Shown here piece by piece: positions 1-46,260 of a stretch of DNA of 64,000 nt. The notes beneath the pieces were generated by a model. That model was not told the DNA's origin and did not search any database. It saw only the letters and a program-made list of their open reading frames with translations. The stretch is from a virus. The DNA lies in the IMG/VR virus record IMGVR_UViG_3300045988_080644; one strand, given 5' to 3'. Every line of letters starts with the position of its first letter. Position 1 is the first letter of the stretch. Made by a program: the position numbers and the translations under genes.

Positions 1-1
1 T

Positions 2-4938: not shown

Positions 4939-5138
4939 TTTTTACACAAGTAGATTGTTTATATGGTTTACTAGATTCTAATTTTAAAATGAAAACTCTA
5001 ACTGTAACCAAAAATATAGACAAAATCCTAGAACAATGTACTAATTTTCCAGGTTCTACTAATTATATAAACGCTGATTTATACAAAGATAATAGATTAA
5101 TAGGAAATATAATAATTGATAAATTACCAGAAATATGA
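4851..5138 (+). CDS. Hypothetical small protein (95 aa; alternative internal start ATG near 4987)
   Basis: Standard-code ORF with no TAG. Its TGA overlaps the next gene's ATG (ATGA at 5135-5138), suggesting coupling. Its 5' 88 nt overlap the previous gene, so the true start is uncertain. Confidence 0.3.
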   Translation: MERNSINNSNNIGLFTNDVEQYLGKVDKIIFTQVDCLYGLLDSNFKMKTLTVTKNIDKILEQCTNFPGSTNYINADLYKDNRLIGNIIIDKLPEI

Positions 5139-13000: not shown

Positions 13001-16000
13001 TTACATATAAGGTACACGATAAAGAGGGTAAATCCTTTGAAATAACATAGGAATCTATTTAGAAATTGTATAAGGGAGAAGTCCCTACTGAACCTATAAC
13101 TCCATAGATTACTACCATAACTACTGGAATGGAAAATACTTCAGAAGAGGAATATGAATCTGCAATATCTCAATCTAATATAGAAGACACTGTTGAGACT
13201 CCTAAATCAGTAGGCACTCTATATACTATGAATACTTACTTACCAGGTATGAAAAATGACAATGGTAAAGCTGTATTTGATGATGATTCTCCAGAAAGTC
13301 AAGCTAGACATGATGCACGTATTGATGGATTTGTAGGTTTATCGAGAATACTAAAGACTGATGATTGGAAGGAGTTAGATGACTACTTTGCCTACTGTAG
13401 AAACGCTCTATTTACAAGTGAAAGGAATGCTGATGCAGCTAAATATTTAGCTAATATTTTAGGATTAACAGGTAATGTTAATATTAGATATGCCTTAAAA
13501 AGTTCTGCAGGTAGAATTAATTCTTCAGACCCTCGCTATTATAGATATGATTAGGGAGAAAATGAAAAATGCGAGTATTTACATTCTGATAGTAAGGATG
13601 CAAACGATGCTATGAGAAAAAAGGTGGTAGCCATCTTATTTAATGATGGAAAGCCAGTTCTTGAAATCCCAGTAGCATCTTTAAATTCACCTATTTCACT
13701 AATTTATTATACAGATGAAGAAGGCAATTTATTACATCCTGATTTAAATAAAGCTTATACAGATGCATTAATTAAGTATTAGGGTAACAAGAATTAGAGT
13801 GATTTAGCAGTATAGGAAGTAATTAATTAGTTTGATAAGAGTGGAACAGACTAGGATATAGTTGACTTATTTAAAGTGTATAGATTTACAGGAAATGGAA
13901 TATTCTTTTTTGATGAATCATTTAATCTGGCTGAATAGTCTCCTACAGGAATTATACTTACCGGAGAAAAAGGTAAGTTACAATAGAATGGTAGTTATTA
14001 GACTTCTAATAAATTTATAGATGTGTCAGAGTTAGCTAAGAACCCTTAGTTTAGGGTATCCAAAATATTGACATCTAGGGACGGTTTAGTTAATGGAACA
14101 CATGCTGTAAACCCAGGTCATTCTTTCATTCTAGTTGGTAATCCTAAGGAATTTGCAGGAACTACTGATTTAGTTAATTAGTATGAAAGACAAATAGCAG
14201 ACCCTAAGGCACCTAAAAAAGTATCTTTATATTATGTAATGCCTCCTAAGACTACAGTATCTGCTTGGCTTACTAATTAGCATAATTTATATTTAAATAC
14301 CTTGGGATAGAACAAATAGGTATATAATATAGGTAATGACTTCACAGGATATAGAGTATTAGACTGCTTAGATAAACAAGGTCTTTTAGATTCTATACCA
14401 TCTATAGGAAGTACTGCACAAGGCTATAAGTCGGGACAAGATGTATTAGATTCTATTAAAACAATACTCTCTAATGTTAGAGCTATAGAAAGTAAATGGA
14501 AAGGTGATTTAGCTTTAGATAACTCTAATCAGATAGAGGGTAGAGGTGAGGAAGAATACTATTAGATGCTAATTAACTAGGGAATGAAAGAACCTGATGC
14601 TAGACGAGTAATGTCTATCAAAGAAGTTAATTAGTATCTTAGACAACCTAGTTCATTATTATTTTAGGAAGGACGTACCAATAATTAGGTTCTTAATGCT
14701 TACTTAACTTGTATGGTTTGGAATAGGACTAAGGCTATCGGTTAGAAGGAAGTTATTACATATCACCCTGAAGTGCTTGATTAGATATAGTAGGCGTGTG
14801 AAAATGCAGAGGAACCTTTAAAAGACATATTCTATAAAACTCAATATACAGATAAAGCTCATGGTTCGTTCCTTGAAATATAGTAGAGAGCTAATTGGTA
14901 GCTAGAAGGCATAAACGGAGATGCAGCATTTAGAATTAATGCTCGTATCGACACAACTAATTTTACATCAGATGAACTTCCAATAGCTAGAATTGCTGGA
15001 GAAATAGAATAGAAAGCCATAAGAACTAAAGATGGCAGGGAAGTAAAAGTATGGAGTATGACTCCAGATGCTAAATAGAAATATGAGGCAGTTTATTTAG
15101 ACTAGAAAAAATTAGAAAATAAACCAGACCCTATTGATGAGTATGCTCCTTATATGCAAAAAATAGGAATATCTGAAAAAGAATTAGCTAACATAATAGC
15201 CTTAAACCATGGAGACAAATCTGCTATACAAAGAGATATAGCTAGGTGGTTTAATTCTTAGGATGTTCATAATTTTGGATTCACATATAATGGCAATATT
15301 TATTTATTTAATAATTCTGAATATTCATTAATTTCTAGACCTACAAGCTTAGCTACCACAGATAACTTAGTTTTAAAGGGAGTAGATAATAATGGAGAAC
15401 ATGATATAACAATCACCTTCAATGTAGATGGTAATGGTAATATTACATCTATGTAGGGTAATGTAACTACTTTTAAATAGGTAAGTGCTGGACGTTAGAT
15501 TCCTGATTATATGGAGAGTATGGAAGAGCAATTAAAGGATAAGAGGTCTTCGTGGGAATACTATAGGGATGATATTCAAAGGGAAGACCATGGAATAACT
15601 TATATAACAGGTATTCCCTATCAATCAACTATAGAACCTTCCATAAACTTAGCTGTTGATTCTGGTGTACTGCCTAAAAAGTATGCAAAGTATTTAAATA
15701 AAGATAGACCTGGCTCAATAGCCTTAGAGGACTTGCAAGAGATAATTGATATATTTAAGAAAAAAGGTATTAATAGTCCTACGAATTTGCTATCTTATAT
15801 TAAAAATGATGGAATTACTGTATCTAAGGAAGAATGGGAAGAAGCTTAGAATGGTATTAGGGATTCTATACCTCCACTATTAGCTAGAAATAGTGTCTTT
15901 TTAAGAGAGTATGACAAATCTATTTCAGCTCAAGGTAAACGAGATCTAAAACGTAGTTTAGGGACTGCGAAAAAATTCCTATCCACAGTTAAAAAGAAAG

Positions 16001-16251
16001 GAGACAAGGTTAAAGAAGAAGCTTGGGAAAAAGTGATTTCTATAGTAGAATCAATAACGTCTTCATCTACCCCTACTATATCATTAGAAAATGAAGATAC
16101 TGTTATTTAGAATGGTAAAAGATATACAATAATTGATAAAGAAAACTTAATTGGAGAAGATGAGGTTACTAAAGAATAGGTAACTTTAACTACAGATAAT
16201 TTAATTAAAGAGGAAACTTAGTGTATTCCTGTTAAATTTAATATGATTTAA
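7006..16251 (+). CDS. Giant multidomain protein (3081 aa with TAG=Gln) with hydrophobic Gly-rich segments and an embedded SF1 (RecD/Pif1-like) helicase/ATPase domain
   Basis: ATG 7006 (TAATG overlap). Frame 1 is open for 9246 nt to TAA 16249-16251. Walker A GIAGSGKSKAV (~11392-11421), Walker B VIFIDEISH, motif III GDFDQ (Q=TAG 11827-11829), YTGITRASQGV (~12355-12390). Track ORFs 8635.., 10336.., 13129.., 15511.. are all in this frame. Confidence 0.85.
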
Positions 16252-16252
16252 A

Positions 16253-19200
16253 ATGGCAAAATGTTCACTTAAAAAATCACCTAATGGAGCGTTTGGTGGT
16301 TACAGTTAGGAATCTATAGAAGAATTAGAAGACTTTGTAACCACGGCTTTTAATGAAGCTCTTATGAATGCTGGAGATGGATCAAACGGAGGTTTAATTA
16401 AAAAAGCAGTTCGAGATGCATTACATAAAATTGGTGATTAGTATTCTATGAATTAGTTAGATAAAATAGCAGAAATTACATAGAAGTTAATTGATAATTC
16501 AGAAGATTTAGTATTTTTGAATGAGTACATACCAATAGAGGGTATAAAGAATGCAATAAATCCTAAATATAGATAGACTGTAAAAGAATCAAACTCTTCT
16601 CTGGGAGAACCAGAGGAGGGTGAGACTCTTGCCAAGAAGTCTCAATTCTTAGATGATGTATGGGGCACTAATGTACGATTAAAGAACGCCTATAAACAAG
16701 AAGTAACTAATTAGTTAATTAATAAGTTTATTATAGATAGAGAGCATGGTGTAATTGTAAAAAATGCCGGGGACGCTAACCGAAATATTCGGGACTATAA
16801 GAATAAATTATGGGGAGATATTAAAGAGTATTTAATTGGAAAAGGCTCATTAGATGAGTTTACTCCAGATATTTATGAAGATGGAGAATATACTGGCGTC
16901 TTTGAAGATGAAGAGGTCAGAAAAGCAATAAGAATTTTTGGTTCTTGGGATGCTCAGAAGATACAATCTGATAGAGATACTGATGATTATAAAATATTTA
17001 AGAAATGGTTTACTCTAAAGAACTTTGACAACTTTACTAGAATGTTGCTAGGTAAAGCTATTATTATTAAACCCGGAACTGAAAATACATTTAGTAATGA
17101 AGATAATTACTCCTTTGCTACCAAAAATGATGCGGTAATAACAAGCTGGAGAACTAATGAAGATGTTGTACTAGAATAGGAAATTGGAGCATTAGCACAA
17201 TCCTTAATTAATTCTACACCATATTATTAGTATAGAAATGATGCAGAAACAGGCTAGTATATAAAGTTCTCTGATTTCTATTAGATTATAACTAAATTAA
17301 AGGAGTCTGTTTATAATCCTGTAACTTCTGATATTACATTTAGGAGATTAGATAATAGATATTAGAATTTATTTAATTCAGGTTTACTTACTCAGCATGA
17401 ATTAGATCTTATACAAGGTAAATCTTTAAAAGATTTAATATGTAGTATTAGAGAAAATCCTGCATTATATAGTAAACTATTATTTACAGCTATAATTAAT
17501 GATAAAGATACCCTAGTGAGATTAAATTTCACAGATGAAGATTTAAATAAAATGTACTCTTTATATAAGGGTATATTTGCTCCTAAGGATAAGTCTATTC
17601 AGGCTATTTAGGCTAAAGAAGATTATAGAGCTTAGAACTACTATAACTTAATAACTTAGGTAGTTGATTCTATCAATTCTGTAAAATTCCTATAGTATAA
17701 TATTGAAGATGGAGTAGTAAAAACAAGACTCTTAAAAGATTATTCTGCTGAAAACGTAAGAAGATCTATAGAGAATAATATAGCATATACTAATTCTTCT
17801 CATATTTTATCTTCTTTATTTAAAGAAAGAGAAGTTAAATTATATAATATATAGACATTAGCTGATAAGGCTAACACTTTCTCAGGAATTACATGTACTA
17901 TTCCTGACATTGGTATAATTGTAGAGGTCAATGAATTGGGAAATTACATTTCTTACAAAGATGAGTTTGGCAAGCTTTTAAGTTCAGAGGAAATAGAAAG
18001 GTTAATCGATAATCCGAAAGTAGAATCTCTATGGCAATTTATTGATGATAACTTATCTATTGGAGTTTCTTATGATACAGATTTGAGAAAAGCACTTAAA
18101 ATGTACTCGGTGGGTCATACTATATAGGATTTATTAAAATTAACTTCTACAGTACTTCTTAATAAATATATAGCTAATGTAAAAGGAGAAAGAAGTCATG
18201 GTAAAGCTGCATTAAATGACTTATTTGATAATATATATAAGGGCTATCCCAATAAACCTAAATATAATTCTGAATTAATGGAAATGGGATTATATAGCGA
18301 TGCTATGACTCCTATTCTTGATAATATATCTAAAGCTAAAGCACTCACTTCTGGTATTATGTAGTCTGCTTCAGTTAAAGATGCTGATGGTAAAACCCTA
18401 TCTCAATAGACTCTTAGTCGTTTATTAGGTAACTTAATTCCTTAGTATAATTGGATTAAATCTTACAATTGGGTAGGTAATGATAAGGTTAATCCATTCT
18501 CTAAGATGTCCCTTATGTAGCCTGGTGTATTTAGAGGTATATATACTACAAGAGAGGTTAAGTCTCCTTATGGAAATAAACCTCAAACATAGTTTACAGT
18601 ATCTGAGTTTAGTTAGAGTGCCTTTCTATATGATTTCGTTGATGGTTTTACTACTAAAAAGGATGTTCGAGGAGATGTAGTTATTGGTAATGGAAAAGTA
18701 GGATTACTACCATCTGTAAACTCTGATAAAAATACTATTAACAGAATGTGTGTAGATTTGATGTAGAAAGTTGATTCTAAGCATCCGGAACTTAATGGTA
18801 AACAATTTATAGACCTTGATTCTAAAGAATTACAAACATTAACTAGTGAACAACTTGGACACTATTTCAAAGCAGTTAATTAGAATATACAAAAAGATTT
18901 TGATAAGTTATTTAATTGGATAAACGGTAAGTATCATTTAGCTATATATAGTTTAGAAGACATTAATAGTCGTTATAGTAATCCTGCTGATTAGTTATAT
19001 CAATGGGTAAAAGAGTACAATGACACCCACAATAATGTTATATAGTTAATTGATTAGACTCACTATTCTATTGATAAAAAAACTAAGAGACTTAAATCCA
19101 ATATGCTTTTAAAAGGATTAGAGACTAGATTTTCTGACCCTAGTAAGCTAGCTAAATTTATGCAGTGGAAGGAGACAGAAGTTTTAAAATCCTTATTAGA

Positions 19201-22200
19201 TGAAAATGTAGAAATTCGTCTTATTGACGGTACCAACTCTTCTGCTAAGACCTATTTAAAAGACAATTATAAAGATTGGATTCATAATGGTAAAATGGTA
19301 TTTGCTAAGGTTAACGGTAAGGATATATTAACTAAATAGGACTTAATTAATTTAGGACTAGATATTAATGATCCACATTCTTGGAATATAGAATTACATC
19401 CTATGCTTAGTAAGTATAATGCGTTAGACTATTTCTTTACTTCTCAATATATGTATGCAGGAGTAGGATGTCATACTAATCATCCTTCTAAGGCAGATTA
19501 TAATGTCCCTATTATTTATAAGCATCCAAAATTAGGTTTATCTACATTCTTATAGAATAATCCTCAAGCTGCAAACTATCTCATGGATTTTGATGACTTC
19601 TTTAATGAAAAAAGAGATGCATTTATTGAAGCCCAAACTCATGTAGAAAAATCTATCCCATTCTCTGATGATGAAGGCTATGTTTACTATGACACTAATC
19701 CAGAATGGACAAAAGCTAAAGAAAATTATTTAATATAGAATTAGAATAATCCAGAATTTTAGGATTTTGTAAAGAAAGCATGGAATGAAGCTAAACTTAT
19801 AGCTAAGGAATAGAATAAAATTTTATTAAATTCTAGTTCTATTGTATTAAAGATGTTCCCACAGGACTTTAGTAAAGTATTAACCATGTCCTAGGAAGAA
19901 GCAGTAGCACGTGGTATGGATCCAGATTGGAAAAATACAATTGATACTGCTTTAAATGGTTTAATAGTACCTAAAATAGAATTCAAATCAGGTGAATATT
20001 TTGACAAAGCATTTAGCTCTTATTTAACTAAAGAAATGGATAAACTTCTTCAAAATGAAACTGAAGATGAAGCATCTCGTTTTGCAGCATAGCATAAGAG
20101 AAATGTATCTTATACCGCAGCCATGCATGAGTTTCAATTAAATCAAATAGATGGCGTGCCTTCTGTCTATAATATGGCAATTATGTCAGATTTGAAGTCT
20201 GATGTGTATACAGTATAGGCAGATGTGGATAAAGCTACTAATTTTGATGGTGCTACCTTTGTAAATCCATTTATAGTTATTTGGGAGAACAACTCCCTTA
20301 ATGGAGATAAAGCAGGTATAAATAAAAAGCAATTTGTACACTTTTATGATAGAGCCACTGGTACAGGAGGTATTATTAAAACTGCAGGATTTGGTTTAAC
20401 TAATGACAAAATAAGACAGTTTGACTTCTACCGTAATATGATGTATAATATGACCGGTAAGAAATGGAAAAATGCTGATGGTTCTCAATATATTATGCGT
20501 GATGGGGGTATTCTTAAAGACTTTGAAGACAACGACATTGACTATGGTGATTTCTACTATAGAAAAGGGGCTAAATTTTATAAGAGACGTATTTAGTCCT
20601 ATGATGGAAATAACACTTATTCTATATTAGAGCAAGAAGTTGATGAAAATGGAGAAGCAAAGGGTAATGAGAATACTATTCAAGTATAGGTAAATTCTAA
20701 CTATGATGTGTGGCAAATGTTTGGAGGTATGAATTCTGTAGACTTCTTAGATGGAACTCTTCAAGGTTCTGAAAAGTCTATAGAAATGACTGCACATGCT
20801 GCCAATATTTATGGAACTAAAAAAGAGGGTGTTATCAGAGCGCAGACAGCAGATGACATTATCTAGCCTATGAAGCATTCTGATATACATTATATGCCTA
20901 CTATAGGTGCTGTTAAACACGGTGCTGCAAACATAAATCCAGTCTCTTCTTTCTTTAGTAGAAATGGTCTAAGTTTTATGTAGGTAGAAGTGAGATAGGC
21001 TGGTATTTAGCTTGATAAGGAACATCAAGCTGATAATGAAGACTTGTCTCTTATGACTTAGGTTATTTCAGCTGCTTGTTCTATGGGATACACTAAGGGA
21101 GAGGCTACTAATCTATATAATGCTTTATATAGTCTATCTAAATAGGCTACTAAGGCATTTAGAGACGAAATGGGAGACCTATTAAATGGATTCTCTGATA
21201 GCTTTAATGCTGCGGTAACAGAAACTATTATGAAGTCTTTGATTAATGCTTCAGCTACAGACGGTGATATGCTATAGTTAGTAGCAAAGAATATTATAAA
21301 GAAAATAAATGCTGAAAAATAGTTTTCTATCAATAAAACTAACTACGCTGACATTGATAAAGAAATTCCTTATAGTGATGCTGCTGTTTCTGCTAAGGTA
21401 GTTAGTTCTTTAACCGCTGCATTAACTAAAGCTGGAATTAAAACTAAAATGCCTGGTCTTTTAGCAGTATTAAATCCAGCTGAAGGTATTATAAAAATGT
21501 ATAAAGTGCCAGCCAAAGACAAAGATGGCAATATTCTATTAAATGAAGATGGTTCTACTGTATATAAATATGTAACTATGGATGCCATAGAAAAAGAGTA
21601 TGATACAGAGAATGCTTTTGAAATAATGGAATAGTTACAAGCAGAAACAGGACCACTTAGTTATAATACTGATGAAACTGGATTAATAACTAGTATGCCT
21701 GATGTCAAAATAGGACGTAAATACTTAGTTACTTTCTCAGATGGGGTCAACAAATCTACTAAGGTTGTAAATGTGACATTACCTCATAGAGTGGAGTCTG
21801 ATACTAGTACTGTATTTTATAATAATGTTCCATATCAAGAATAGACTATGGGATATAGAAAACTTATAGACTATTTAAATGGAATAGTTAATGAGGAAAC
21901 TGGAGTTACTAACCAAATTACAGAAGTTAAGGAGTTTTTAATAGGAGGTCAGGACTTAGATAGTTATGATGTAAAATTTTAGGATTCTTTAGGTAATAGA
22001 TGGCAAATGTCTGATTTAGATATTGTACAAGATTATTTTGAAGCAAGAGAATCTAAAGACCCCAGAAGAAAAGTATTAGAAATATTATCTAAGTATGATA
22101 AAGACTAGGAATTAAAAGCTGCTATAATTAAGGAATTTAATGAGTCTAATAATTCAAATAAAGTTAAGATTGTCAATGATTTAAATGATAATTTTAATGG

Positions 22201-25200
22201 AATTTTCTTAACTGAAACTCCTATGTATAAAGAGTTCTTTTAGAAGTATGCATTAAAATTCTTAAATAGAGAAATGCAACGACAGTTGACCGCTTTAAAT
22301 CCTGAAAATACAGAGCCTTTAAATGTATTAATTAATAATAAAGTAGTTACTGTATAGCCTTCTACTATTGATATAACTAGTTATGGAACAGTAATACCTA
22401 AGACAGCTGCTTCCTCTTTTGGTCTTAATTAGTATGACTAGGTTAGTGATATTGTTAACAATCCTGATTTCTTCTTAGATAGATTAGCTAAGAGACTTAA
22501 TACTAAAGTTTAGGATTATTATAAGGATGGATAGTTAGTATATAATTACCACTTGGAGCTAAAAAGAAATGATGGTAATCATGTTTATATAAGAAGAGGG
22601 ATTGATAATTCTGACTTCGCCAATGAAATTTAGTGGTTTAGGTATGTTGATTCTGATGGACATGTATTTAGAGTAAACAGTGATGGAAATATTATGCATC
22701 CAATGTATAGTGAGAATGATAAAATATATACTGACTATGATGGAAATGAAATAATAGTTACTGAAGCTAAAGATACTTGGAAAGATTCTAAAGGCAATGA
22801 AGTAAAGAATCCTGATATAAAGAAAATTCGAGGCATCACCATTGATTAGAAGACTGGAGAAGAAATCCATTTAGATTCTCCATTTACCTTTTACTTAGAT
22901 AACCTTAATTATAACTTTGTAAATTTAAATGCAAATTGCTCAGAAGCTGAACTATTAAATTTATTAGATGCAGCCAGAAGTAGCAAATCTAAAAAGGCTA
23001 ATAATTTTGTAAAGAGACTTGCTAAAATAGGTAATTATGATAAATAGGTGGACTATTTAGATAAACTTACTAAGTATGAAGATTTAATAAAAGGAGATAC
23101 TAAAAATCCAGCATATTTAGCCTTACAAAAGGAATCTAGATAGATATGGACTTCTTTTATGAAATATCTTGAAAATGTAGCAGCACGTATCCCTGCTTAG
23201 TCTTAGTAGTCTTTCATGGCTCAAAGAGTAGCTATGTTTGAGAATACAGATACAAATAATGCTTATGTAAGTAAATTCTAGTTCTTCTTACAGGGAAGTG
23301 ACTTGGATATTGATGCGGTATCTATACAAACATTTGATATAAATAGCAACGGTATTTATGAAACTTATTCTCCGTATGCTAATCTGGATTCACCAGCACT
23401 TCTTAAAGTTTCTGAAAAATACTTACCGTTCCCAACTGGAGATAGGATAAAAGTTGAAGAAATTCATGATCCAACTATAACTACTATGCACTAGTTAATA
23501 GCTAAATAGCATTATGATGGTAAAAGATTATTTGGATTAGCTAATAAACTTAATTAGTAGGATGCTTTATTCTTAATAAACTATACTAGAAATAAGGATG
23601 TAATCGTAGAGGTAAATACTAACAGTGAATAGAATATAAAAGATTTAGCTGATATTCTTGAGTCTATTAATTCAGAGGATTGGTATTCTTACGAAGATGA
23701 TATATCTAATACTAGAGCCTTAACAACTTTATTATTTCCAGATAATGAAATGGTATTGGATGTAGATTTATATGATAAAATAGAAAATGGTATAATTGAG
23801 GCTATAGATAAACATAATACTTATTTAAAGAATAATTCTAAAGCTAAGAACGATAGAATATTAAAGAATTTTGCTGTAACTTCACTATTAAATATTATTA
23901 AAAATCCAGTTAATCTTAGAGAGGCTTAGTCTTCTGTAGATGTTATGACATCAACTGCTAAGAACTTAACTAAGGCTTCTCCTAAAAATGCAGTACAAAA
24001 AACCTTTACTCCAGGTAATGTATTTAATAAAATCTAGAGTATCAATGAGAATATGGTTGGTAAAGATGGTATTGCTATCTGTGCGACAGGTCTTAAATCT
24101 TTCTTTGCATTAACTCATATGTATAATACAGTATTAAATGATGAAAACACTAGTAATTAGGAAAAAGAAGCTTTAATGTGTAAGGTAACAATTGGAGGTA
24201 AAACATATAGAGGACTCGCTAACGTAAATGCTAATTAGGAGTTAATAGAAAGTTTAGCAGATGCCGAGAATGGTAATTTTACTACTTTACAGAATTACTT
24301 ATTAGCTCAAGAATGGGAATCTGATGCTGCTAATGAAGCTTCTGCTTTTCTGTCTCTTTCAACTGATAATGCTAAGGAGTTAGCTTTAGCTAAATTAAAT
24401 GCAGGTACTCAGACTTTGGGTATGTATTTATATGGGTTATCTCTTGGAGTTCCAGTAGACACTTTGTTTAAAATAATGACTTCTCCATTTGCTTTTAGAT
24501 TAGTAGAATTAGCAAAAGGTGATACATTTAGTGGTAATAGTGGTTGTGGAACTATAATTGGTACTCTAGACTACTTACATAAAGACCCACTAGAATAGCT
24601 TTCTAGATTTAATACATTTGATTTATCTACATATAACGAAGGTAAACCAAAAGATTAGAAAATATTAGGTCCAGCTGATTTTGCTTGGTAGTTATTGTAG
24701 AATAGTATAGCAGATGATTATAATGAAAAATTACCACTTCTTAGATAGTTAGCTTATAAAGGTAATGCTATTTAGTTAATTGAAGATTTAAGGTCTAAAG
24801 TTAATTAGATTAGTAGTGTTATCTAGACAAAAGATGAATTTAATCTCTATTCAACCTTATATAATCAAGCACTAGACTTTATGGAATAGTATATTGCTGA
24901 TGTCTAGCTAGAGTTAGATAGTGGAAGTTACGATACTGTATACGGAAAATCCATAATAGCTACAGACTTAGAAACTCTTGCTCTTGGTGCTGATGAATAT
25001 AAAGAAATAGGTAAAATTCTTAGACTTAATCAAGAAGTAAAGACTAATGCTTTAGATTTACAAAACTAGGTAGCTAATATTGAAGAAGTTATAACTAGAA
25101 GACTCAGACAATTAGCTAGAGTTGAAAATAGGGGAAGCTACTATAGTCATGGTGCCACAAAAGATGAGTTAAAAAATCCTGATAAATATAAGATTGATTT

Positions 25201-26635
25201 AGAAAAGTTTTTATATGATGAAGTATACTAGTAGGAAAAAATAGCGTAGTATGATAGAATTAAACAATCTTATAATGTTTTACGTGTTCTTACTACAGAT
25301 CCTTAGTATAAAGGTTATATGGAAACCTTATATATGGCTCATCAAGGTCTGTTAAATAAGTAGTTAAAGTATAGATTTACAGTAGGTAAAATTGCAGATT
25401 TTATTTAGAAAAATAAAGTTACTGGTAATTTATAGTAGTAGGTACTTAAAAATGGTAACAATTATGTTGACTATAAACTAAGACAAAATTGGATGCGAGA
25501 TAGTAAAATACAGATTACTATTCCTGGCAGTACCGATAAAATGAAAACTTATGCGTTTATAGGAACCCCAAATAGTTATAGTTAGTTATACTTTGATAAA
25601 ACTATACAACTGGGCACTGATATGGGAGATGCTAATTTTAAATTATGGATGGAGCAAACTCTTATTCCTAGACTTAAAGCGGACCCAACATTAAAAGATA
25701 ATATATTTATATAGCATTTAAGTCCTATAGTTAACTCAAGAACTAATTTGGGTATGACTGCGGTTTATTATGGATTAAATGGAATAAACATGTTGCCTTA
25801 GTCTGACGCTGAAAGAGAAATGTTTGATATACATAAAGACGCTTTTAATAAATTAGCAACCTATGACTTGATTAGGGACGCTAAAGGTCATACTTTTGCC
25901 ATAAAAGACTTATTTTATCTATATTCTTTAATATGTAATAACGGTAAATTTGGTCCTACTTCTCTACATAAAATATTTGAGGATTATCTAGATTCAGGTC
26001 TAGCCTAGAGTTATAAACACTTTATAGCAGAAAAAGATAGAGACTTAGATTTCTACCAGGATTTAGTAAAGACATGTACAGATGAATGGCTTGCACCTAT
26101 GAGTTCTCCTTATGTTGGAGGTTCTAAAGTACTCAAATATAAGGATTAGAACAATGAATAGATTCTACTTTATAAAAAGAAGGAAAAGAAGTCAAAAGGT
26201 GGATATGACTATGATGTCGAGTAGGATATGGATGACATCTTTATGAATGATATGGGATTTGATCCAGAAGGTGGAAAAGACCCTATGGCAGAAATCAACA
26301 ACTATGTTAAATAGGAATCTAGTGCCCTAGCTAAAAGAGACTATAGTTTCTTCTCAAATCCTGAAGTTAAATATAATACATCAGGTTTTCAAGTATTATC
26401 AACTAAATCAGAACTAATTAATTAGCATCCTATAACCTACGAAGTTAGAGATGGTAAACCTGTATTAGTAAATATAGGGGGTGATGGGGAGATTGCAAAA
26501 AAGTTTATGAAATTAATGAAAGATCGTAAGGGAATATTACCTACTAAGTAGATTCTTGGAACAGATGGATTTACTGCAGTAATTAATGAAGAATAGATTG
26601 AATCAGAATTAAATAGTATAATAAATTGTGGATAA
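16253..26635 (+). CDS. Giant protein (3460 aa with TAG=Gln) containing a two-barrel RNA polymerase-type DxDxD catalytic motif; crAss-like virion-packaged RNAP candidate
   Basis: ATG 16253, two nt after the upstream TAA. Frame 2 is open for 10383 nt to TAA 26633-26635. ARIPAQSQQSF...GSDLDIDAVS has DLDID at 23300-23314. An in-frame triple TAG lies at 25433-25441. Track ORFs 17936.., 19103.., 20225.., 21449.., 23303.., 24416.., 25820.. share the frame. Confidence 0.8.
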
Positions 26636-27683
26636 TTGTTTAATTAAAGATTTAGAATATCGGACTAAGCTATCTTAGTCTGGTATTCCTGAATCTATAT
26701 TTTATCCATTTTGCAATGGATTTATGAATAAGTATGGGAGATTACCTAATCTAGATGAAATTCCAAATGTTGATTCTTCTCAACATATAATTAATAAACT
26801 GCATCTAGATAGTAATAGCTCAACATCTATAGATAATATCATGTCTTCTACTAATACATCAAGTATTGAAGAAGCTAATGTTAGTTTAAATGATACCTAT
26901 AAAGATAAAGATATAAATATAATTCCTTTATATAAAGAAGCTTTAGTTGACATAAAAGATAGACCTTCCGAATATAAAACAATAGAATAGGAAAAACATA
27001 AAGTAGATAGAAATCCTAATATGCAGGGAGTATTTAATTAGTTATTTAATAAGTTAGAGAAATAGTATGGAGTACAATTACATACTATTTCAGATAAAGA
27101 ACTGGCTAGTGATGAATGGTAGGGAATACCTGAAATTTAGACAGCTAATGCTTTTATTTATAATGGAGATGTATATATAAATACAGACCATGCAAAAGCC
27201 GATGCTCCTATACATGAAATGACTCATATGTTATTAGGTTCTATTAGATTTAAAAATCCTGATCTTTATTATGGAATTGTACAACAAGCCTAGGATTTTC
27301 TAACATTTAATTAGTTTATAGAACAAAACCCAAATAGAGCTATAAATGATAATATGGAAGAATTATTTGTTACAGAAATGTCTAAATATCTAGCAGGGGA
27401 ATCTAGCATTATTGAATAGTTAGATGAAACCGTTATTAATGAGTTACATTATAACATGAAGAGACTATTAGATACTGCACTTATGGGTTAGTATAGTGTA
27501 AAAAGTATTCCTGATTCTAAGTTATATAGAATGTCTTTAGCTGATTTAGTAGAAACTGTAAATTCCCAGATGTTAGAAACAAGTTTTTATGGAAGCCTAG
27601 ATGACGCTGCTTTGCATAGAGTATTAGCTAATACTAAGTCAGATTTAATGAAAAAAGGTGATTTAAGAGAAGATTGTGTATGA
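26628..27683 (+). CDS. Putative Zn-metallopeptidase-like protein (HEMTH motif), TAG-recoded; start uncertain (GTG 26628 or ATG 26724)
   Basis: Frame 0 is open from 26625 to TGA 27681-27683, with in-frame TAGs after 26988. PIHEMTHMLLG has HEMTH at 27213-27227. Its stop overlaps the next ATG (ATGA). Confidence 0.7.
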
Positions 27684-30600
27684 AATGTATTTATAGTTAT
27701 AAAGGAAAACAGTTTTAGTCCATACAATAGTTAGATGATTTTCTATTAGAAAAACAAATATATGAAAGTAAATATGGAGATTTAGTATTCTCTATGACTG
27801 AAAAATAGTTGTCTGCTTAGAATAGAATTGATAGCATCAATAAAGAAGCAGAGGAACTAAATAAAAAATATGCTGAAGCTAAGAAAAACGCGTCATTTAT
27901 AGACTCAGAAGAAATATTAAAAATGACTCGTCCTTATGTAGGTGTAAGTGAGTTTTTAATGGATTAGAGAAATGATGAAGGAGAACTTTGGGTGCCTACA
28001 TTTACTACTGAGTATTGGGCTAAACAATACTTAAATTGGAGTTAGGGAATTTACTCAAAGGACGAAAAAGATGCATTTTTTGATGGTGATGATTCTAAAG
28101 TATAGCCTGTAGAATTAGGAAATCAGGGGGATTGGCGTAAGGCGGATGGCTCTCTAAAGGATGATTTTGGAACTATTGAATAGAATAACTTCCGTAAAAT
28201 AATGGAAGATAAGTGGAAACACTAGGCTAAGTATGGTGATGATATTCATGCCATTATGCAGAGTTATTTTGCTAGAATAGGCGAAGATTCTGATGGAAAT
28301 CCTAAGTATCGATATGAATTATGGGAAGGAGATCAAGGAGCTATGCATTTAGCTAAGAGTATTAAATATATGCGTAATAAAGGAATTATTACTGATGAAA
28401 TGACTGATGCTAAAATTAATAGTATATTAGAAATAGCTAGAAATTTAAGAGATTAGTTATAGAGTTAGTATGGCAAAAAATGTATATTTTATCCTGAAAT
28501 TACTGTTAGTGCCAAATTGAATCATGAATATGAAGGTAGAGACGATTTAAGTGTATTAGGTCGTCTAGACTTATTAGTTATTGATGAAGATGGTATTCCT
28601 CATATTATGGATTACAAAACTTCTCCTAAAAATTACGATGACTTTGTCGAAGCTAAGAAACTCACATTTACTTACTAGTTAAGTACCTATGAAAGAATGC
28701 TTAGGAGACATGGTTTTAATACTACAGCCACAAGCTTAAATATTATACCACTTAAACTAAATAACTTTAGAAAAGAAAATGGTAAATGGACTTACGATGA
28801 TGTAGTACCTGGTGGTAATTTACTAGAATCAATAACTGATAGAGCCAATAAAGATTACATAGCTAATAATCTTGATGAATACATAGAAGCTCCATTATTA
28901 TTAGATGGGGATTCTAGTAAGATTACAGAGAATGTAACTGATTTAATGAAAACTTGTTTTCCTGAACATGGTAATGTAGCCACTGATGAATAGATAAAAA
29001 AGATGATTGATGGCTAGGGAGGTTTCCATGAAAATAAGGAAGCGGGTTCTTTGGAGTTTAAGCCCAAGGGATGGACTAAGACTATATCGGTAAAGTAGAA
29101 GGAAGGGGCAGAAGCTGAATTATTTAATAAGGTTAAGAAATTCTTTACAGGCTAGAGAGAACGTAGTTTAAAGAGAACTTAGGAAATTAAGAGAGCACTT
29201 AAACAAGCACAAGCTGAAGACACTAGATAGATTTAGTTACCTAATTCTATGAGTGATTGGACTAAAACAAGGCTATCTAAATATTGTAGTAAATCTTGGG
29301 AAGTAATGGAAGGTCATGCACAAGATGTTGCTGAGCAATTTGGTATGATATTTTTATATAACAAAGCTAATGATTTAGTAGAGGTAGTTAAAATTAGTTC
29401 TGCAGATTTATCTTTTTAGCATTCTTGGGGAAAAGGTAGATAGAATATTATTGGGGCAAAGGAAGCTGATTTGGGAGAAAATTCCAAGTCAGACAGTTTG
29501 ATTATTAAAGCTACTAATGGTAACATAGAGCTTATGGAAGCCATGGCAGTTTTAAATAATATTCAGTTTAATAAGTTTATTTAGTTAGGAAACATAAGTG
29601 TTCTTAATCCGGTATTTGGTTAGGGAGCTGAAACTAATTCTAATAAAGAGCTGCTTTATAACTGGAGAAAACTTAGAAAAACCTTTAACATGGATGGGGA
29701 AGATTAGTTTAAATAGGATGGTACTATTAAATTATTGTCTTTAGCTGAAAGAGCCTATCTGGAGTATGCTGATATAATGGATAGAGTTAATGACAGGTGG
29801 CAAGCTCAAGAATTTAGTAAGTTTAAACCTGCTATGACTGAGTTACAAAGTTCCTTACAACCTAATAATGTAGAAGAAAGTCTTGAAGCTCTTAATTAGC
29901 TTAAAACCAAATTGGAGAAAGACTTTGGAATGAATAAGGATATTTTAACCAGGGGAGAAAATAAGGGTAAAAGTATATATTCTGAAGTATAGAATTATGA
30001 CTAGCAATATACTAAGTAGATGTACCAAATAACTCTTAGAGCCATTGCTGAACTTAGCGGTTTTGATATTAGACAGGAAACAAAAGCACACAGTTCTTTC
30101 TTAGATAGTTTAAATATCTTAGAAAATGGTATGTCTGGAAATATGATAGATAACCCAGGTAACTTTGGTAATAGACTTCTTAATTAGGTAACTTAGTTAG
30201 CTCTTGATGGTTATTAGAATACTCGAGATATGTCAATTAAAAGACTTAATGCACTATCTGAAAAAGTACGAGAGCTAAAAAGAGGTGAAAACTATGGGGT
30301 TATTAGTGAGTATGGATTTGGTAATTAGGCTTCTCTCTATAATGGTATGACTTATTATGATACTGATGGTGACTTTAAATTTAAAAATCCTTGGAAAGAT
30401 AATTCCCTACCTGAACATAAAAAAGAGTTTTTAAAATGGGCATTAACCGAAATAGCTAAAAATAAACATCCTGATTGGACTCCCGAAGTTATTAAAGATA
30501 AAATAGAAGCAAATGATCCAGATTTCTTTTAGGTTCCTTTAATAAGGGCTGATGCCGCATCTAAAATTAATGCAGACGGATGGTTAGGTTGGTTAAAAAG

Positions 30601-32524
30601 TAAAATGAGACCTTTAATTAGCAAAGATAATGGAGCAACTTTTAAAGAGAGAATTCAAAATACTTTAAAAGATATACAATCTAAATATTTATCTGATGAA
30701 ATAGATTAGTAGCAAAGTATTGACGGTGAAGTATTTAAAGTAATAAATACTATGGATTAGGGAAGTGGTCCTGGCAGATTAGACTTAATTAAACATCTAC
30801 AAGGAAAATACGGATCTAATTGTTTTGAAACGGATATAGAAAAAATATTAGGTGCTCATATGATGGCATATGCTACTCAACAAGCCATGGAAGATAGAAT
30901 GCCTTTAATTAAAGCAGCTTATATATCCTTAGCAGTAATGGGTAATAACTAGGGGGTAGACTATTCTTCTGATGAGAAATATATTAAAGAATATGTTCAA
31001 AATAAAATAAATAAATTAGCAATAGATAATCCTTAGTTAAGACATTTAAGGAGTGCCACTGGAATGTTACAAAAAAGTGCTTCTTGGATGGCATTAGCTT
31101 TTTCACCTTTACAAATGTCTTATTAGAGTCTGGAAGGTGTTTGGAAGGCTGCTAAATTAGTTATAACTAAACCAGATGGTAAAGAAACATTTAGTTTTTC
31201 TAATATGCGTAAGGCTATGGGTATTGTATATAAAGAATTGTTTAATTATAGTGAAACAAATTCTGTAATAGAGGGTTGTAACGCTCTTTATGGTATAAAC
31301 GATATGGATGCTGCCTCATTTGCTCAAAACAATAGTACTAATAAGCATGGTCTGTTTAATTTCTTTGACAGAATTGCATATTATTGGTCTTCTCGTCCCG
31401 ATTTCTATAATAGAATGTCAATATTCACAGCATAGATGCTTGAAGATGGTAGTTATGAAGCTCATTCAGTAGATGCCAATGGTAACTTAATATACAATAT
31501 TAAAAAGGATAAGAGATTTGAAGCATTATTTAATAAACCAAAGGGTTCTCCTGAATATAATAAAGCAAAAGCCTTATTCTTAGCCACTGCTTAGTAGTTA
31601 GTGAGGGAAAACGCTAGAAATGCCGATGGTTCATTATACACCATAGATTTAGATAATCCAAATTTACCTAAAGCCTACTCTAATAAAGAGTCTGAATCTA
31701 TGAAAGCTATTGGGGATACCATGTATGGATATTACGATAGTTCTAAGAAATCATTATGGCAATCTACATTCTTAGGAGGCCTTATGATGCAAATGCAAAC
31801 ATATTGGTCTGGTAAAAAGAATTAGTATCTTGCTCCTGGAGGTATTAAAGCACAGGGTAAATGGGTCTAGATGGTAAGTCCTAATGGTAAAAAGTGCTAT
31901 TATTCTAAAAATGAAAATGGAGATATTGATAACTCCTCAATGCCTATAGAAGAGGGAGATCCTAGAGCTAGTGAAGTACCCTTTATGCAATGGAAGGGTA
32001 GATTTGAAGAAGGCGCTTTTATAACCTTATATGATGTACTTAAAAGAACTATAGGACATAAGGGAAATCTTAAAGCTGCTTGGAAAGAGAAGTTAGATGG
32101 AACTGACGAAGACTTATAGAAACTTTATAAGTAGAACATGAAGTTGATAGTTAGTGACTTACTCGGTATGTTACTTATTGGTTCTTTACTAGGCGGATTA
32201 TTAGAAGATTTAGCTGATGAAGAAATTAAAAAGGCTAAAAAATCTGCACAGATTGGAGATGCTATGGCTGCAACAGCCTTAAGTCTAATAGCTAAGACTG
32301 TAAGAAATTCAGCTCTAGATTTTAACATGATAGACTCTTTGTTTGGCTTCGTAGGGGATTGGAATCCATTCTCTATTAGTTATGCAACTAATTAGCTAAG
32401 TAATGGTTGGAGTCTTATAACTGGAGATAAAAATTGGGAATAGACTCTATGCAGTGCCTTCTCTGCAGCACGCTAGATGAGACCAATACTTAATTGCATT
32501 AATTAGTCTTTACAAGAGGATTAA
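27680..32524 (+). CDS. Large protein (1614 aa with TAG=Gln) with an N-terminal PD-(D/E)xK (RecB/Cas4-like) nuclease domain and a C-terminal hydrophobic segment
   Basis: ATG 27680. Frame 2 is open to TAA 32522-32524. GRLDLLVIDEDGIPHIMDYKTS (DYK at 28610-28618) is followed by TYQLSTY, where Q is TAG 28676-28678. Track ORFs 28256.., 28697.., 30347.., 31205.., 31601.., 31871.., 32138.. share the frame. Confidence 0.85.
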
Positions 32525-42187: not shown

Positions 42188-42442
42188 TTAGTGAACCCAA
42201 TGGTCATTTATATCTATATCTGCTCCTAAAAATACATTAGGACAGAATGGTTTACCTCCGGCTATCATACAATCAATCAACACTTTACCCACTTGTTCTT
42301 TAATTGCTGCTGGACACTCCAAGTTGAATTCATCATGAGCTGGTACACACATCTTTACCTTATCTATTAGCTTATGATCCACAATCCAATTAAATAGTTT
42401 AATAGAAGATAGTTTAAAGCACATTGCTCCTCTATTTTGTAT
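42188..42442 (-). CDS. polA: Family A DNA polymerase, exon 2 (84 aa, carries motif C)
   Basis: IQNRGAMCFKLSSIKLF...CVPAHDEFNLE matches the PolA Q-G-x-A-A-D helix and the motif C HDE. It is in frame with exon 1 after removal of 42443-42647. The track ORF 42188..42514 over-extends it from a TTG. Confidence 0.75.
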   Translation of the reverse strand: MQNRGAMCFKLSSIKLFNWIVDHKLIDKVKMCVPAHDEFNLECPAAIKEQVGKVLIDCMIAGGKPFCPNVFLGADIDINDHWVH

Positions 42443-42647
42443 CAATGTTTGGACTATTTCATTATCCCATAGGGATATTGGGCGCTTATAGGATATTATT
42501 GCTTCAATACTCAATCCTTAGTCTCTGAACCTTCTTACTACTTTTACTTGATTCATAAGCTTGGCTGCAGATTATTCTAATATTAGACCTTCCTGCAATT
42601 CACCCAATTTACAGTAGATAATTACTTATCTACGCCGCATACATTTT
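42443..42647 (-). ncRNA. Putative ORF-less group I-like self-splicing intron in polA (~205 nt)
   Basis: The 5' exon ends in U (42648) and the intron ends in G (42443). Exon CCGU can pair with intron GCGG (42638-42635) across a 9-nt loop, a P1-like helix with a U-G wobble. There is a GUAA tetraloop hairpin (GATAA-GTAA-TTATC) and further stems (TGCAG/CTGCA, ATCCC/GGGAT). Confidence 0.6.
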
Positions 42648-44579
42648 ACGGTAATTAATAGATTGTTTCTCAGAAGCTGCTTTACGCTGCATATAGTGTC
42701 TTACTTCCTGTACAATTTCATCTTGTGGATTACGTTTTCTTACATTCTGATAATACTCCCAAAATCCAGGTTCCTGCATCTTATTATGAGTCTCTTTTAA
42801 CTCTTCAGCATCATAAATATGTGCCCTATGTCCAGTGAGAGGATTAAGTAATATATAACCATCTCTCATAACAGCTGCTCTACAATAATCTTGGTATCTT
42901 TTTATTCCTGGAAAACCCTCCATAAAATTATCATAAATTTCTTTTGCTTCTTCTACAGGAATACCATCATTCTTAGATATAGTATTATAGTCTCCTCCAT
43001 AATTAATAGCAAACTCGATGGATTTGGCTTTTTGTCTCCAATTATGATAGAGTTTCTTTATATCCTCAATCTTAGTGTCTCTTGGGATTATATTAGGATA
43101 ACTCATGTAAGCTACCAGAGAATGGACATCACCACAACCATGTTCAAATAGGTCTATCATCTTCTCATCTTTAGAAACAGATGCAATAATACGAGATTCC
43201 TGACTTTGATAATCAGCAGATAACCAAGCATTACCCTCTTCGGATGTAAAACATGCTCTAGTTTCTGGATCGTGAGGTAGATTTTGCATGTTCAGTTTCC
43301 AAACACCTCCGCCAGAACTAACTCTTGCAGTATCTGTACCTATAGAATGAAAATCTGCATGTATTCTACCTGTTTTAGGATTAATTGCATTTAACCAGTT
43401 TTGTCCATAAGTAGATACGACTTTAGCAGCTTCTTGATATTCCAAAAATATAGGAATAATTGGAAAATCATTCTTTTGAGGTTTTAAAACATTTGCTTCA
43501 ATAGACTTCTTTTTCTGTTTAGTCTTTTTATCAAATGTTTCTACATTAATTCCAAGTAACTCAAATAGAGGTATTACTTGTTTTTGACTACTCCAATTTA
43601 TTACACATTTAGGTTCAGTATCAAATCCTGTAAATAAGTCACCTTGAGTATCAATTCGTGTAAACTGATTCTTAATTACTTTCTTATAAGCATCAACCTT
43701 ACCATCAGGGGTTTGTAAGTCTTCCTGAGGGAACCTTTTATATCCATCTTTAATTAGTCTCTTTACCTCAGCAGGATAATCTGCAGAATACTTTGGATAT
43801 TTAAGTTCAGGATATTGAATATCATAGCCATTATGAGGATTTTCTTTATCCCAAGCTACTACCCAAGCATTTAATTCTGAAATAGCCTTATCAAGTTTAG
43901 CTTGATCTTTAGTCATTTTAGCTTTCCACTTCGTAATATCGAGATGAACTCCACAATATTTAAAGTAAGCAAGGGATTTAACAAATTCACATTCCAGCTC
44001 TACTGCGAGTTTCATGCCTTGTTTTTCTATTTCAATATCTTGTTTTTCTTTTATATCCTCTATATACGTAACATCTCCTGCAGCATAAATAACGACCTCA
44101 GTAGTTAAACCATCATTAACAATTTTACCTCGAACAGTTTTATCAATGTTAATATTTAAGTAATTCCATGCAGCTGCTTTCAAGCTCTTTTCACGCATTT
44201 GAGCTGGATACCCTAGATATAAGAGCTGTTCTACTATCATACCATCCCAAATATGCTTAGGATAGATACCCTGAACATATAAAAAGGTTAAATCAAACAT
44301 TAAATTCCATCCCAGAAACAATCTGTCTGATTCTAGGTAGTTTTTAACTATTTGCTTTTCTCTTGGAGTTAGAGTAGTCCAATCAATAACTACTTGATTA
44401 TCTTTATTACCTAACTGTATAGTCAATAAAGCTTTGGTATGACAGTCGAGACCCTTAGTTTCTGAATCTAACTGACATAGTTTGAGCGGCAACAGAACAG
44501 ACATTGCCTGCTCCATTGTCGCTTCTATATATTTATCCGTTTGAAATAAACTTTTATTATGACTAACTAAATAAATCAT
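42648..44579 (-). CDS. polA: Family A DNA polymerase with 3'-5' exonuclease domain, exon 1 (644 codons)
   Basis: Exo motifs LDSETKGLD, NLMFDLTFL and YAAGDV. Pol motif A SADYQSQESRI and motif B RQKAKSIEFAINYGG. The track ORF runs on to a TAG at 42630 inside the intron. Confidence 0.9.
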
Positions 44580-44839: not shown

Positions 44840-45159
44840 GCTAAATAGTCATTTAACCACTCTATTCCATATTCATCTATTACCTTTTCATCTATCTTTA
44901 TAGCTTCAAGTTCTATATCCTCAAGCTGCTGTTCATACCAATCTTCAAATTGATCCTCATCATCCTCGTCTATATCTGGACTATCTAAATAGCTAAATGA
45001 GTTAACACACTCATCTCTTAATTCATTTGCATAACTCAGTTCTAATGTAGGATCTTCTTCACTTTCAATTACTTCATTTATTGAAGCATCACAAGCAACT
45101 GGATACTTAGCAATAACTAGCCACCAATTCCCATTAAGAAATTCTTCCTTAGATATCAT
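44836..45159 (-). CDS. Hypothetical highly acidic protein (107 aa)
   Basis: Intact ORF with an Asp/Glu-rich run (DIDEDDEDQFEDWYEQQLEDIELE). Confidence 0.55.
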   Translation of the reverse strand: MISKEEFLNGNWWLVIAKYPVACDASINEVIESEEDPTLELSYANELRDECVNSFSYLDSPDIDEDDEDQFEDWYEQQLEDIELEAIKIDEKVIDEYGIEWLNDYLA

Positions 45160-46004
45160 TATATTAATTTAAATAACTGTAAATTGCATCTTTTTCTTAT
45201 TTTATCTAAAGCTTTTTCTTTTATTTGTCTAACTCTTTCAACACCAATGCCAAACATATCTCCTACTTCTTGCTTGGACATAGGATTCATTCCTATGCCA
45301 AATAACATAATAATAATATCATGTTCTCTGACAGGAAGTATATCTAGACATTTGCATAGTTCCTTATTAATAAAGCTTTTATTAACTTGTTCGTCAAGAG
45401 AAGGCTCTCCGTCCGGTATCACATCACATACTTGACTATTTTCCTCATCCCCACCAATAAAGTCATCGACACTAACTAATCTGTTAGAAAATTGTGCCAA
45501 ATAGTCTATTTGCTTTTCAGGGATATTAGTTAAAGTATGTAATTCATTTGTAGTTGGATTTCTACCATTCTTTTTAATAAACTCATTAGTAGCTCTTAAT
45601 ATTTGAATTACTTTTAAGTGTTGAGTTACTGGCAATCTAATCTCACGACCATACCAATATATAGTAGTATAAATACATTGTTTTATCCACCAAGCAGAAT
45701 AATTAAGAAATTTAACACCCCTAGTTGGATCAAATTTATTTACAGATTTACATAAACCTTCCAATCCTGAGGATATTAAATCCATAAGGGGAATACCTCT
45801 ATTTTGAAACTGCTTAGCTATAGTTACTACAAATCTTAAATTAGAAGTAATTACTTTTTCTCTAGCCTTTTCATCTCCATTTTGAGCTTCAACAATTAGC
45901 TTGTTTATTTCTTCATTATCTAATATTTTATATTTAGATATATCTCGAAAATAACTCTGAAGTAGAGAGTCAGACTTGTCAGAAAAAATAATTCTTTTAT
46001 TCAT
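45159..46004 (-). CDS. Sigma-70 family RNA polymerase sigma factor
   Basis: Region 2-like RFVVTIAKQFQNRGIPLMDLISSGLEGLCKSVNKFDPTRGVKFLNYSAWWIKQ. Region 4 HTH MSKQEVGDMFGIGVERVRQIKEKALDKIRK. Confidence 0.8.
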   Translation of the reverse strand: MNKRIIFSDKSDSLLQSYFRDISKYKILDNEEINKLIVEAQNGDEKAREKVITSNLRFVVTIAKQFQNRGIPLMDLISSGLEGLCKSVNKFDPTRGVKFLNYSAWWIKQCIYTTIYWYGREIRLPVTQHLKVIQILRATNEFIKKNGRNPTTNELHTLTNIPEKQIDYLAQFSNRLVSVDDFIGGDEENSQVCDVIPDGEPSLDEQVNKSFINKELCKCLDILPVREHDIIIMLFGIGMNPMSKQEVGDMFGIGVERVRQIKEKALDKIRKRCNLQLFKLI

Positions 46005-46260
46005 TAATTGTGGACTTAGCTAGTGCTTTAGCTTCATCTAATTGTTTTTCTTCCTGGGTTGGTTGATTAAGACCTATACGTATACTAAGAATAGTGAGAT
46101 AAGCTTCCATTGCCTTGAGTTGAGCTATCAATAAGTCTTTATTAAGATTATCTATAGAAGTCTTATCTATTTTATTAATTAAGAAATCTCTAAGCTTTGT
46201 AGTTTTAGTTTCCAATTCTTTGTACTCTGTAAGTAGTCTGTCAAACACGCTCTTTTCCAT
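45997..46260 (-). CDS. Hypothetical helical protein (87 aa) immediately upstream of the sigma factor
   Basis: Intact ORF overlapping the sigma gene start by 8 nt. Confidence 0.5.
   Translation of the reverse strand: MEKSVFDRLLTEYKELETKTTKLRDFLINKIDKTSIDNLNKDLLIAQLKAMEAYLTILSIRIGLNQPTQEEKQLDEAKALAKSTINE

Follow-up and report, generated by a model that had tools for sequence, protein, structure and literature searches.

A very probable group I intron of 205 nucleotides without an open reading frame in the polA gene of a phage

Why does the gene for a family A DNA polymerase appear as two separate open reading frames (ORFs) in a stretch of viral DNA? The locus belongs to IMG/VR virus record IMGVR_UViG_3300045988_080644, of which we analyzed a stretch of 64,000 nucleotides (nt), hereafter called the window. 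An earlier note, made from the letters of this stretch, had proposed that polA is interrupted there by an ORF-less, group I-like intron of about 205 nt. We conclude that the segment 42647..42443(-) is very likely a genuine ORF-less group I intron that is spliced out of polA. The kind of element is already known; its new aspects are the insertion site, relative to the published sites compared below, the lack of both an ORF and a P9 domain, and the series of alleles in which the intron is present or absent.

The polymerase gene is broken between motifs B and C

The ORF list of the window contains two neighboring ORFs, 42630..44579(-) and 42188..42514(-), of 649 and 108 amino acids (aa), respectively. 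Pfam assigned to the first a DNA_pol_A_exo1 domain and positions 30 to 288 of the 381 positions of the DNA_pol_A profile, and to the second positions 298 to 379 of the same profile, VPAHDEF among them. This agrees with the earlier claims that the longer ORF holds the exonuclease motifs and polymerase motifs A and B but not motif C, and that motif C (CVPAHDEF) is found in the downstream ORF. Since the profile is divided over two ORFs, the break in polA lies after motif B (RQKAKSIEFAINYGG) and before motif C (VPAHDEF). Stops occur in every frame of the 205 nt that separate T42648 from A42442, as had been noted.

Exon 1 (42648..44579, on the minus strand like every feature of the locus) comprises 644 codons, ends with …AAT TAC CGT, and encodes the 3'-5' exonuclease domain and motifs A and B, while exon 2 (42188..42442) comprises 84 codons plus the stop, starts with ATA CAA AAT (IQN…), and encodes motif C. 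At the predicted spliced junction, …AATTACCGT is joined to ATACAAAAT…, and the intron site interrupts the conserved N-x-x-x-Q segment (…SINYR|IQNRG…). In an alignment with the PDB sequence of Klentaq (…AFNMPVQGTAADLMKLAM…QVHDE), the spliced protein ran ungapped through N-x-x-x-Q and HDE, the Klentaq segment aligned to it being …REAAERKAFNMPVQGTAADLMKLAMVKLF…QVHDE. The proposed collinearity with Pol I and the restored Asn…Gln spacing are thereby upheld, and the ungapped alignment makes the insertion site equivalent to FNMP|VQG of Klentaq. In E. coli Pol I, where we take the matching sequence to be AINAPMQG, the site would be Pro847|Met848. According to Pfam and the PDB alignment, only splicing would unite the exonuclease domain and motifs A, B, and C, by which a family A DNA polymerase is recognized, in one polypeptide. 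Exon 2 is open in the intron-bearing alleles described below, where its variable codons comprise 13 with synonymous changes only and 2 with amino acid changes. The polA gene of this phage group is better annotated as a single spliced gene for a 728-aa protein than as a truncated polymerase and a small ORF.

The Rfam model Intron_gpI (RF00028) matched 42658..42432(-) over its full length (model positions 1 to 253) with 81.1 bits, the gathering score being 50, and it was the sole Rfam family matched within the 64 kb. The E value of this match was 6e-21 when the region was searched and 4.8e-19 in the search of the whole window. The covariance model, which the earlier note had named as a check, thus supports the reading as a group I intron, and the comparative and structural evidence given below does so as well. 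In what follows, intron nucleotide n corresponds to window position 42648-n.

Near-identical alleles with and without the intron fix the insert at 205 nt

We searched IMG/VR with the spliced protein and obtained 22 loci, including a 179,760-bp contig (L010, IMGVR_UViG_3300045988_061496) that is 100% identical to the window. The intron was present at the same place in 8 alleles (L010 to L015, L017, and L018), and 8 others (L003 to L009 and L019) lacked exactly the 205 nt and read …INYR IQNR… without a break. Protein identity of the intron-less alleles was 97 to 99% for seven and 90% for one. The comparison with intron-less polA alleles, also suggested in the earlier note, thus supports splice sites after U42648 and G42443. 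The insert can be shifted by one base, since A is the first base of both the intron and exon 2, and the U/G rule for the splice sites then places it where the earlier note had put it. There was a single other candidate for the 3' end, G42432, at which the Rfam alignment ends. We rejected it: it is out of frame with U42648, its only in-frame partner deletes the conserved NYRIQNR, and the alleles without the intron set the length of the insert at 205 nt.

The alleles also differ in the codons that precede the site. Most intron-less alleles read …ATT AAT TAT AGA|ATA CAA… (junction sequence …AATTATAGA|ATACAA…), and TAT AGA or TAT AGG precedes the site in 7/8 of them, versus TAC CGT in the intron-bearing alleles, all of which read …ATT AAT TAC CGT|intron|ATA CAA…. 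The intron-less L019 type reads …TATCGT|ATACAA…. The exon sites most tightly linked to the intron are -4 (C/T), -3 (C/A), and -1 (T/A), and all three changes are synonymous. Together they replace UAGA by CCGU, which forms P1 with the guide GCGG of the intron. These sequence comparisons show that the exon codons of the intron-bearing alleles are adapted to P1.

We then looked at how the intron is distributed over the alleles and found that its presence does not follow the allele tree. The intron-bearing allele L014 is nearest to the intron-less L019 (57 differences), versus 111 to 127 differences from the other intron-bearing alleles compared. In exon 1, ∼7% of sites separate L010 from L011 and L012, but no difference is seen between them from -59 through the intron to +423/+463. 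L018, which has the intron, and L019, which lacks it, share the same sequence from -202 to +309, save for the intron and two synonymous sites at the junction. Such mosaics are compatible with either direction of change, and they indicate precise gain or loss of the intron through recombination that leaves short conversion tracts. The allele series amounts to a natural experiment, with the intron present or absent on near-identical backgrounds and synonymous codons that form P1, and it could be used to study the co-adaptation of group I introns and their exon context.

The intron folds into a compact group I core without P9

P1 (42635..42651) is formed by the exon sequence CCGU (42651-42648) and the guide GCGG (42638-42635) around a 9-nt loop, exactly as the earlier note had drawn it, and U42648·G42638 is the wobble pair of P1 at the 5' splice site. 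A U·G at this position was found in 52/75 related introns (see below). On the exon side, P10 covers 42438..42442, where AUACA forms 5 bp with UGUAU (42643-42639), directly 5' of the P1 guide strand; the same arrangement is seen in the cousin introns of cr116_1 and L020 described below. The last base of the intron is G42443.

P2 (42614..42633) has 8 to 9 bp and is capped by the GUAA tetraloop (42625-42622) that had been noticed earlier. The span from P3 to P3' (42477..42608; P3, nt 40 to 47, 42608-42601; P3', nt 164 to 171, 42484-42477) encloses P4/P5 (42597-42566), P6/P6a (42564-42530), the 5' strand of P7 (42525-42519), and an extra hairpin, P7.1 (42518-42490). P8 follows (42464..42476; 5 bp, AUCCC/GGGAU), and then the 3' strand of P7 (42451..42456), where UAGUCC pairs with 42525-42519 and A124 is bulged. 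P3 and P7 together make the core pseudoknot, and G125-C196 in P7 is the predicted guanosine-binding pair. Unguided minimum free energy (MFE) folding recovered P2 with its tetraloop, P3, P4, P5, P6a, P7.1, and P8 (z = -3.5). Every element that the earlier note had described was thus found at its stated place. The span from P3 to P3' is backed by the Rfam alignment, the MFE fold, and covariation, and P2 and P8 are backed by the MFE fold and covariation. Between P7 and P3' (nt 130 to 158) there is a single extended hairpin of 29 nt, interrupted by an internal loop, where class IA2 is described with two adjacent hairpins, P7.1 and P7.2.

After P7 only an 8-nt tail remains (42443..42450, AAACAUUG), which is invariant across all intron copies and could form a minimal P9.0 of 2 bp (AA/UU) with a 3-nt loop, followed by the terminal G42443. 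No P9 domain is found in the 205-nt intron, whereas the sibling polA introns of L016 and L018 have ∼40 nt between the end of the match to our own covariance model (R1, below) and the exon. As a gauge of P9 loss in relatives, the ends of such matches were uninformative, as the global alignment simply takes 8 nt after P7. From GNRA-receptor preferences, the CC:GG stack of P8 is a possible receptor for the GUAA loop of P2. At 205 nt and without P9, the intron is a candidate for structural studies of minimal ribozymes.

A degenerate core pattern retrieved 75 IMG/VR stretches, and our own covariance model, R1, gave 99 matches, 85 of them distinct. In the R1 alignment, 91.3% of cells pair versus 35 to 43% with slid partners, counts that are inflated by the fitting of the alignment to the model, an effect that P7 and the slid controls offset in part. 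Both sides vary in 49 of the 52 modeled pairs, and covariation is seen in P3, P4, P5, P6, P6a, and P7.1 and at all 8 modeled pairs of P2. P7, which is outside the structure of R1, pairs in 95.2% of cells versus at most 38.5% when slid, and its G-C pair is found in 79/81 sequences. Five kinds of change separate the near-identical intron copies. G15-C34 becomes A15-U34 in L014 and L018, a compensatory change that extends P2; C156 becomes U, which turns a G-C pair of P7.1 into G·U; and the remaining changes are in J2/3 and L6. These patterns suggest that the structure of the intron RNA is under selection.

Splicing is the favored reading of the interrupted gene

A possible explanation for the two ORFs is a split polymerase, in which two separately translated polypeptides, exon 1 with 5 further codons and a second one initiated either at TTG 42514 or internally, assemble noncovalently, the intron-like sequence being an inactive relic. 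The ORF in the frame of exon 2 does reach 24 codons back into the intron, to the TTG at 42514, and the split polA of cr116_1 is annotated as two coding sequences in RefSeq. But the break is inside the conserved N-x-x-x-Q segment, the core, P1, P10, and the terminal G are intact and kept so by compensatory changes, the exon codons fit P1, which is relevant only if splicing occurs, and nearly identical phages have an uninterrupted gene. We therefore regard a split polymerase as extremely improbable and retain a spliced gene.

We propose that the polA transcript would fold into the group I core with P1 to P8, the P3/P7 pseudoknot, and the extra P7.1, without P9. A free guanosine bound at G125-C196 of P7 would attack after U42648 in the U·G wobble of P1, and exon 2 would be aligned by P10. 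The terminal G42443 would then fill the G site, and the exons would be joined to encode the 728-aa polymerase (…SINYR-IQNRGAM…). Unspliced RNA would yield the 649-aa protein without motif C, because a stop is met 5 codons into the intron.

Together with the inflated pairing counts, some points weigh against this reading. Splicing of the polA intron rests on inference. The periphery is minimal (4-bp P5, no P9, and an 8-nt tail), so that efficient self-splicing without a helper is not guaranteed. Moreover, no endonuclease gene, seen as a gene-sized indel, separates intron-bearing from intron-less genomes within ±3 kb, and a homology search of the 64-kb window gave no homologue of the endonucleases of related introns.

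We infer that splicing needs no protein. A genuine group I intron that has lost P9 and most of its periphery might nevertheless be unable to self-splice and need a phage or host maturase or an RNA chaperone in vivo. This would fit with the very short P5, with the lack of P9 and the 8-nt tail where sibling introns of the same gene family keep ∼40 nt after the R1 match, and with several introns of Bastillevirinae phages, for which splicing took place in vivo and failed in vitro (PMC11878797). Such a dependence nonetheless seems unlikely to us: the core is complete and strongly conserved, and the GUAA loop of P2 and the CC:GG stack of P8 could provide a stabilizing tertiary contact. Equally small introns, such as the 205-nt intron of Azoarcus, self-splice well.

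Cousin introns with endonuclease genes lie 2 nt away

The polA gene of cr116_1 (RefSeq NC_055882.1, L002, Steigviridae) is annotated as two "DNA polymerase I" coding sequences around an "endonuclease" coding sequence, with no intron. We found an R1 core (39.6 bits) directly after exon 1 and delimited an intron of 915 nt at 2294..3208, with splice sites after U2293 and G3208 of this sequence, from P1 (CCGAU/GUCGG), P10 (ACAAA/UUUGU), the terminal G, and the reading frame. The insertion is 2 nt downstream of the site in the window (within the Ile codon, AU|A, that follows …INYP), and a 229-aa ORF for an HNH-like homing endonuclease follows the core on its 3' side. RefSeq thus has the same annotation problem here, with one spliced gene shown as pieces.

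The same type of intron, with homologous HNH-like endonucleases, is found at the same place in L020 (PolA 55% identical), where it is about 1 kb long, and in L100 to L103; these cousin introns have 0.9 to 1.0 kb. Rfam gave nothing for cr116_1, L020, L016, or FpV21 at the gathering or E≤0.1 thresholds, whereas R1 found cores in cr116_1, L016, and FpV21. R1 did not match a core in L020, for which we placed the splice sites by inspecting P1/P10 and the reading frame. The cousin introns resemble the window intron in their gene and INY(R/P)-IQ segment, in the layout of P1 and P10, and, in the R1 match of cr116_1, in the sequences of P6, P7, and P7.1 and after P7, but they are inserted 2 nt further downstream, are larger, and contain an endonuclease ORF. 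As a separate observation, the endonuclease of L020 is divided between a 95-aa and a 110-aa ORF (5341..6006), which reflects either a decaying gene or an assembly frameshift.

The relatives contain further polA insertions. L016 has one at about codon 44 (3133..3763) with a NUMOD1-like ORF. An insertion inside motif B (KSIEFA|INYGG) is found in L018 (4579..5673) and also in L021 and L024; in L018 it has a LAGLIDADG ORF and an Rfam hit of 75.8 bits, which makes two introns in the polA of L018. At motif C (HD|E), L103 has an insertion at about 3311..4232, as at the published site of PhiI and W31, and so apparently does GenBank MT835492.1.

The intron most likely spreads by recombination between co-infecting relatives

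No homing endonuclease ORF is present within the intron, the 205 nt being stopped in three frames. Given this absence, the patchy distribution of the intron most likely arose by homologous recombination between co-infecting relatives, although a homing endonuclease acting in trans may assist its spread. Under such collaborative homing, an endonuclease from elsewhere would cut intron-less polA at or near the site and repair would copy the intron in, and the intron together with the altered codons might also render the allele immune to the enzyme. The endonuclease could come from another part of this genome or be the HNH-like enzyme of a cousin intron in co-infecting crAss-like phages. Homologous HNH-like genes indeed reside in the introns 2 nt downstream (cr116_1, L020, and L100 to L103), the intron status departs from the allele tree with short shared tracts on either side of the intron, and the psbA intron of S-PM2 with F-CphI sets a precedent (PMC6083498, PMC3984707). 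Against it, the searches of the ±3 kb and of the window gave no such gene, none of the endonuclease loci that we found is on a contig of this phage group, and ordinary homologous recombination explains the same mosaic. In IMG/VR, the cr116_1-type endonuclease matched only polA-intron copies in other crAss-like contigs (L100 to L103) and none in this phage group. We therefore consider homing in trans possible but rather doubtful, and recombination between relatives remains our preferred explanation.

An extension of this idea, which we think improbable, is that the small intron and the recoded codons break the target of the cousin-intron endonuclease, protect the essential polA gene during co-infection, and get copied into cut rivals. 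If true, this would be collaborative homing between phages and not within one genome.

Comparison with known group I introns

Group I introns in phage Pol I genes have been described at sites 674 (SPO1, SP82, Bastille, and Pf-WMP3), 676 (phiL7), and 881 (PhiI and W31) in E. coli numbering, and these introns all contain HNH ORFs and are reported as class IA2, with separate P7.1 and P7.2 (PMC3428280). The window intron shares with them the IA-type extra hairpin between P7 and P3' (PMC3428280). It differs by its site (the equivalent of 847|848), by the lack of an ORF and of P9, and by a single extended P7.1. This comparison covers sites 674, 676, and 881.

The psbA intron of S-PM2 is also a small ORF-less intron in a conserved phage gene and would need a trans-acting endonuclease, F-CphI, for its spread (PMC6083498, PMC3984707). 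There, however, the endonuclease gene adjoins the intron-bearing gene, and we found none within ±3 kb of polA or in the window.

The group I intron in the tRNA-Ile gene of Azoarcus has 205 nt and belongs to subgroup IC3. The window intron has the same length, a similarly minimal periphery, and likewise a GNRA tetraloop on P2. The Azoarcus intron has a P9 with a tetraloop and sits in a tRNA anticodon loop, whereas the window intron has no P9, has a P7.1, and interrupts a protein-coding gene. With this precedent, it was reasonable to place the insert at the small end of known group I introns, as the earlier note had done; a literature search for the smallest group I intron returned nothing usable. 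The window intron changes nothing in what is known of how group I introns work.

A high density of group I introns and inteins has been reported for core genes of the Delta and Zeta groups of crAss-like phages (Yutin et al. 2021, PMC7886860), and the introns in that study were detected through endonuclease protein domains (PMC7886860). Such a detection would miss ORF-less introns like that of the window, and the intron load of crAss-like phages is thus probably underestimated.

Phage context and other compact introns

The best tblastn matches of exon 1 PolA were Crassvirales PolA proteins (41 to 48% identity), and the IMG/VR contigs of close relatives have 111 to 190 kb, apart from one 75-kb fragment. 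With a crAss001_48-like gene and a TAG-recoded block of giant ORFs in addition, the source fits a large (∼180-kb) crAss-like gut phage that resembles the Zeta group. A megablast of the polA region against GenBank phages gave no match, and that collection is therefore without a close relative of this phage.

Under the standard code, window positions 1..32524(+) contain no ORF of at least 250 aa, but when TAG is read through there are seven contiguous giant ORFs of 1,229, 419, 627, 3,089, 3,462, 352, and 1,620 aa; this is a TAG-recoded block as described for crAss-like phages. The replication half on the minus strand (33 to 64 kb) uses the standard code. A scan of the window detected no tRNA gene.

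The neighbors of polA encode an AAA_33 kinase-like protein, a sigma-70 family factor, a crAss001_48-like protein, and small unknown proteins, and no nuclease domain was found in these genes. The sigma-70 family factor (regions 2, 3, and 4) and the small crAss001_48-like protein are encoded at 45159..46260(-), just upstream of polA and in the same orientation.

Among the pattern-matched IMG/VR introns, none adjoined a PolA homologue, duplicates of this phage group apart. Compact introns are clustered on some of these contigs, with five R1 matches in 4.5 kb of L031 (924..3707), five in ∼2 kb of L059 (9201..11237), and two ORF-flanked matches in L034 (4662..5967). Full-model R1 matches spanned only 158 to 180 nt in L029 (8282..8439), L062 (6662..6826), and L030 (8281..8460), and these introns would be smaller than 205 nt, provided that their splice sites are as aligned. 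In the Flavobacterium phage FpV21 (KT876726.1, L001), positions 3980..4787 have an R1 core of 67.6 bits directly followed by a GIY-YIG-type ORF, in a region annotated only as "hypothetical protein" or intergenic, and the same 73%-identical core is present in 22 records of Flavobacterium phages as well as in Prevotella Lak phages.

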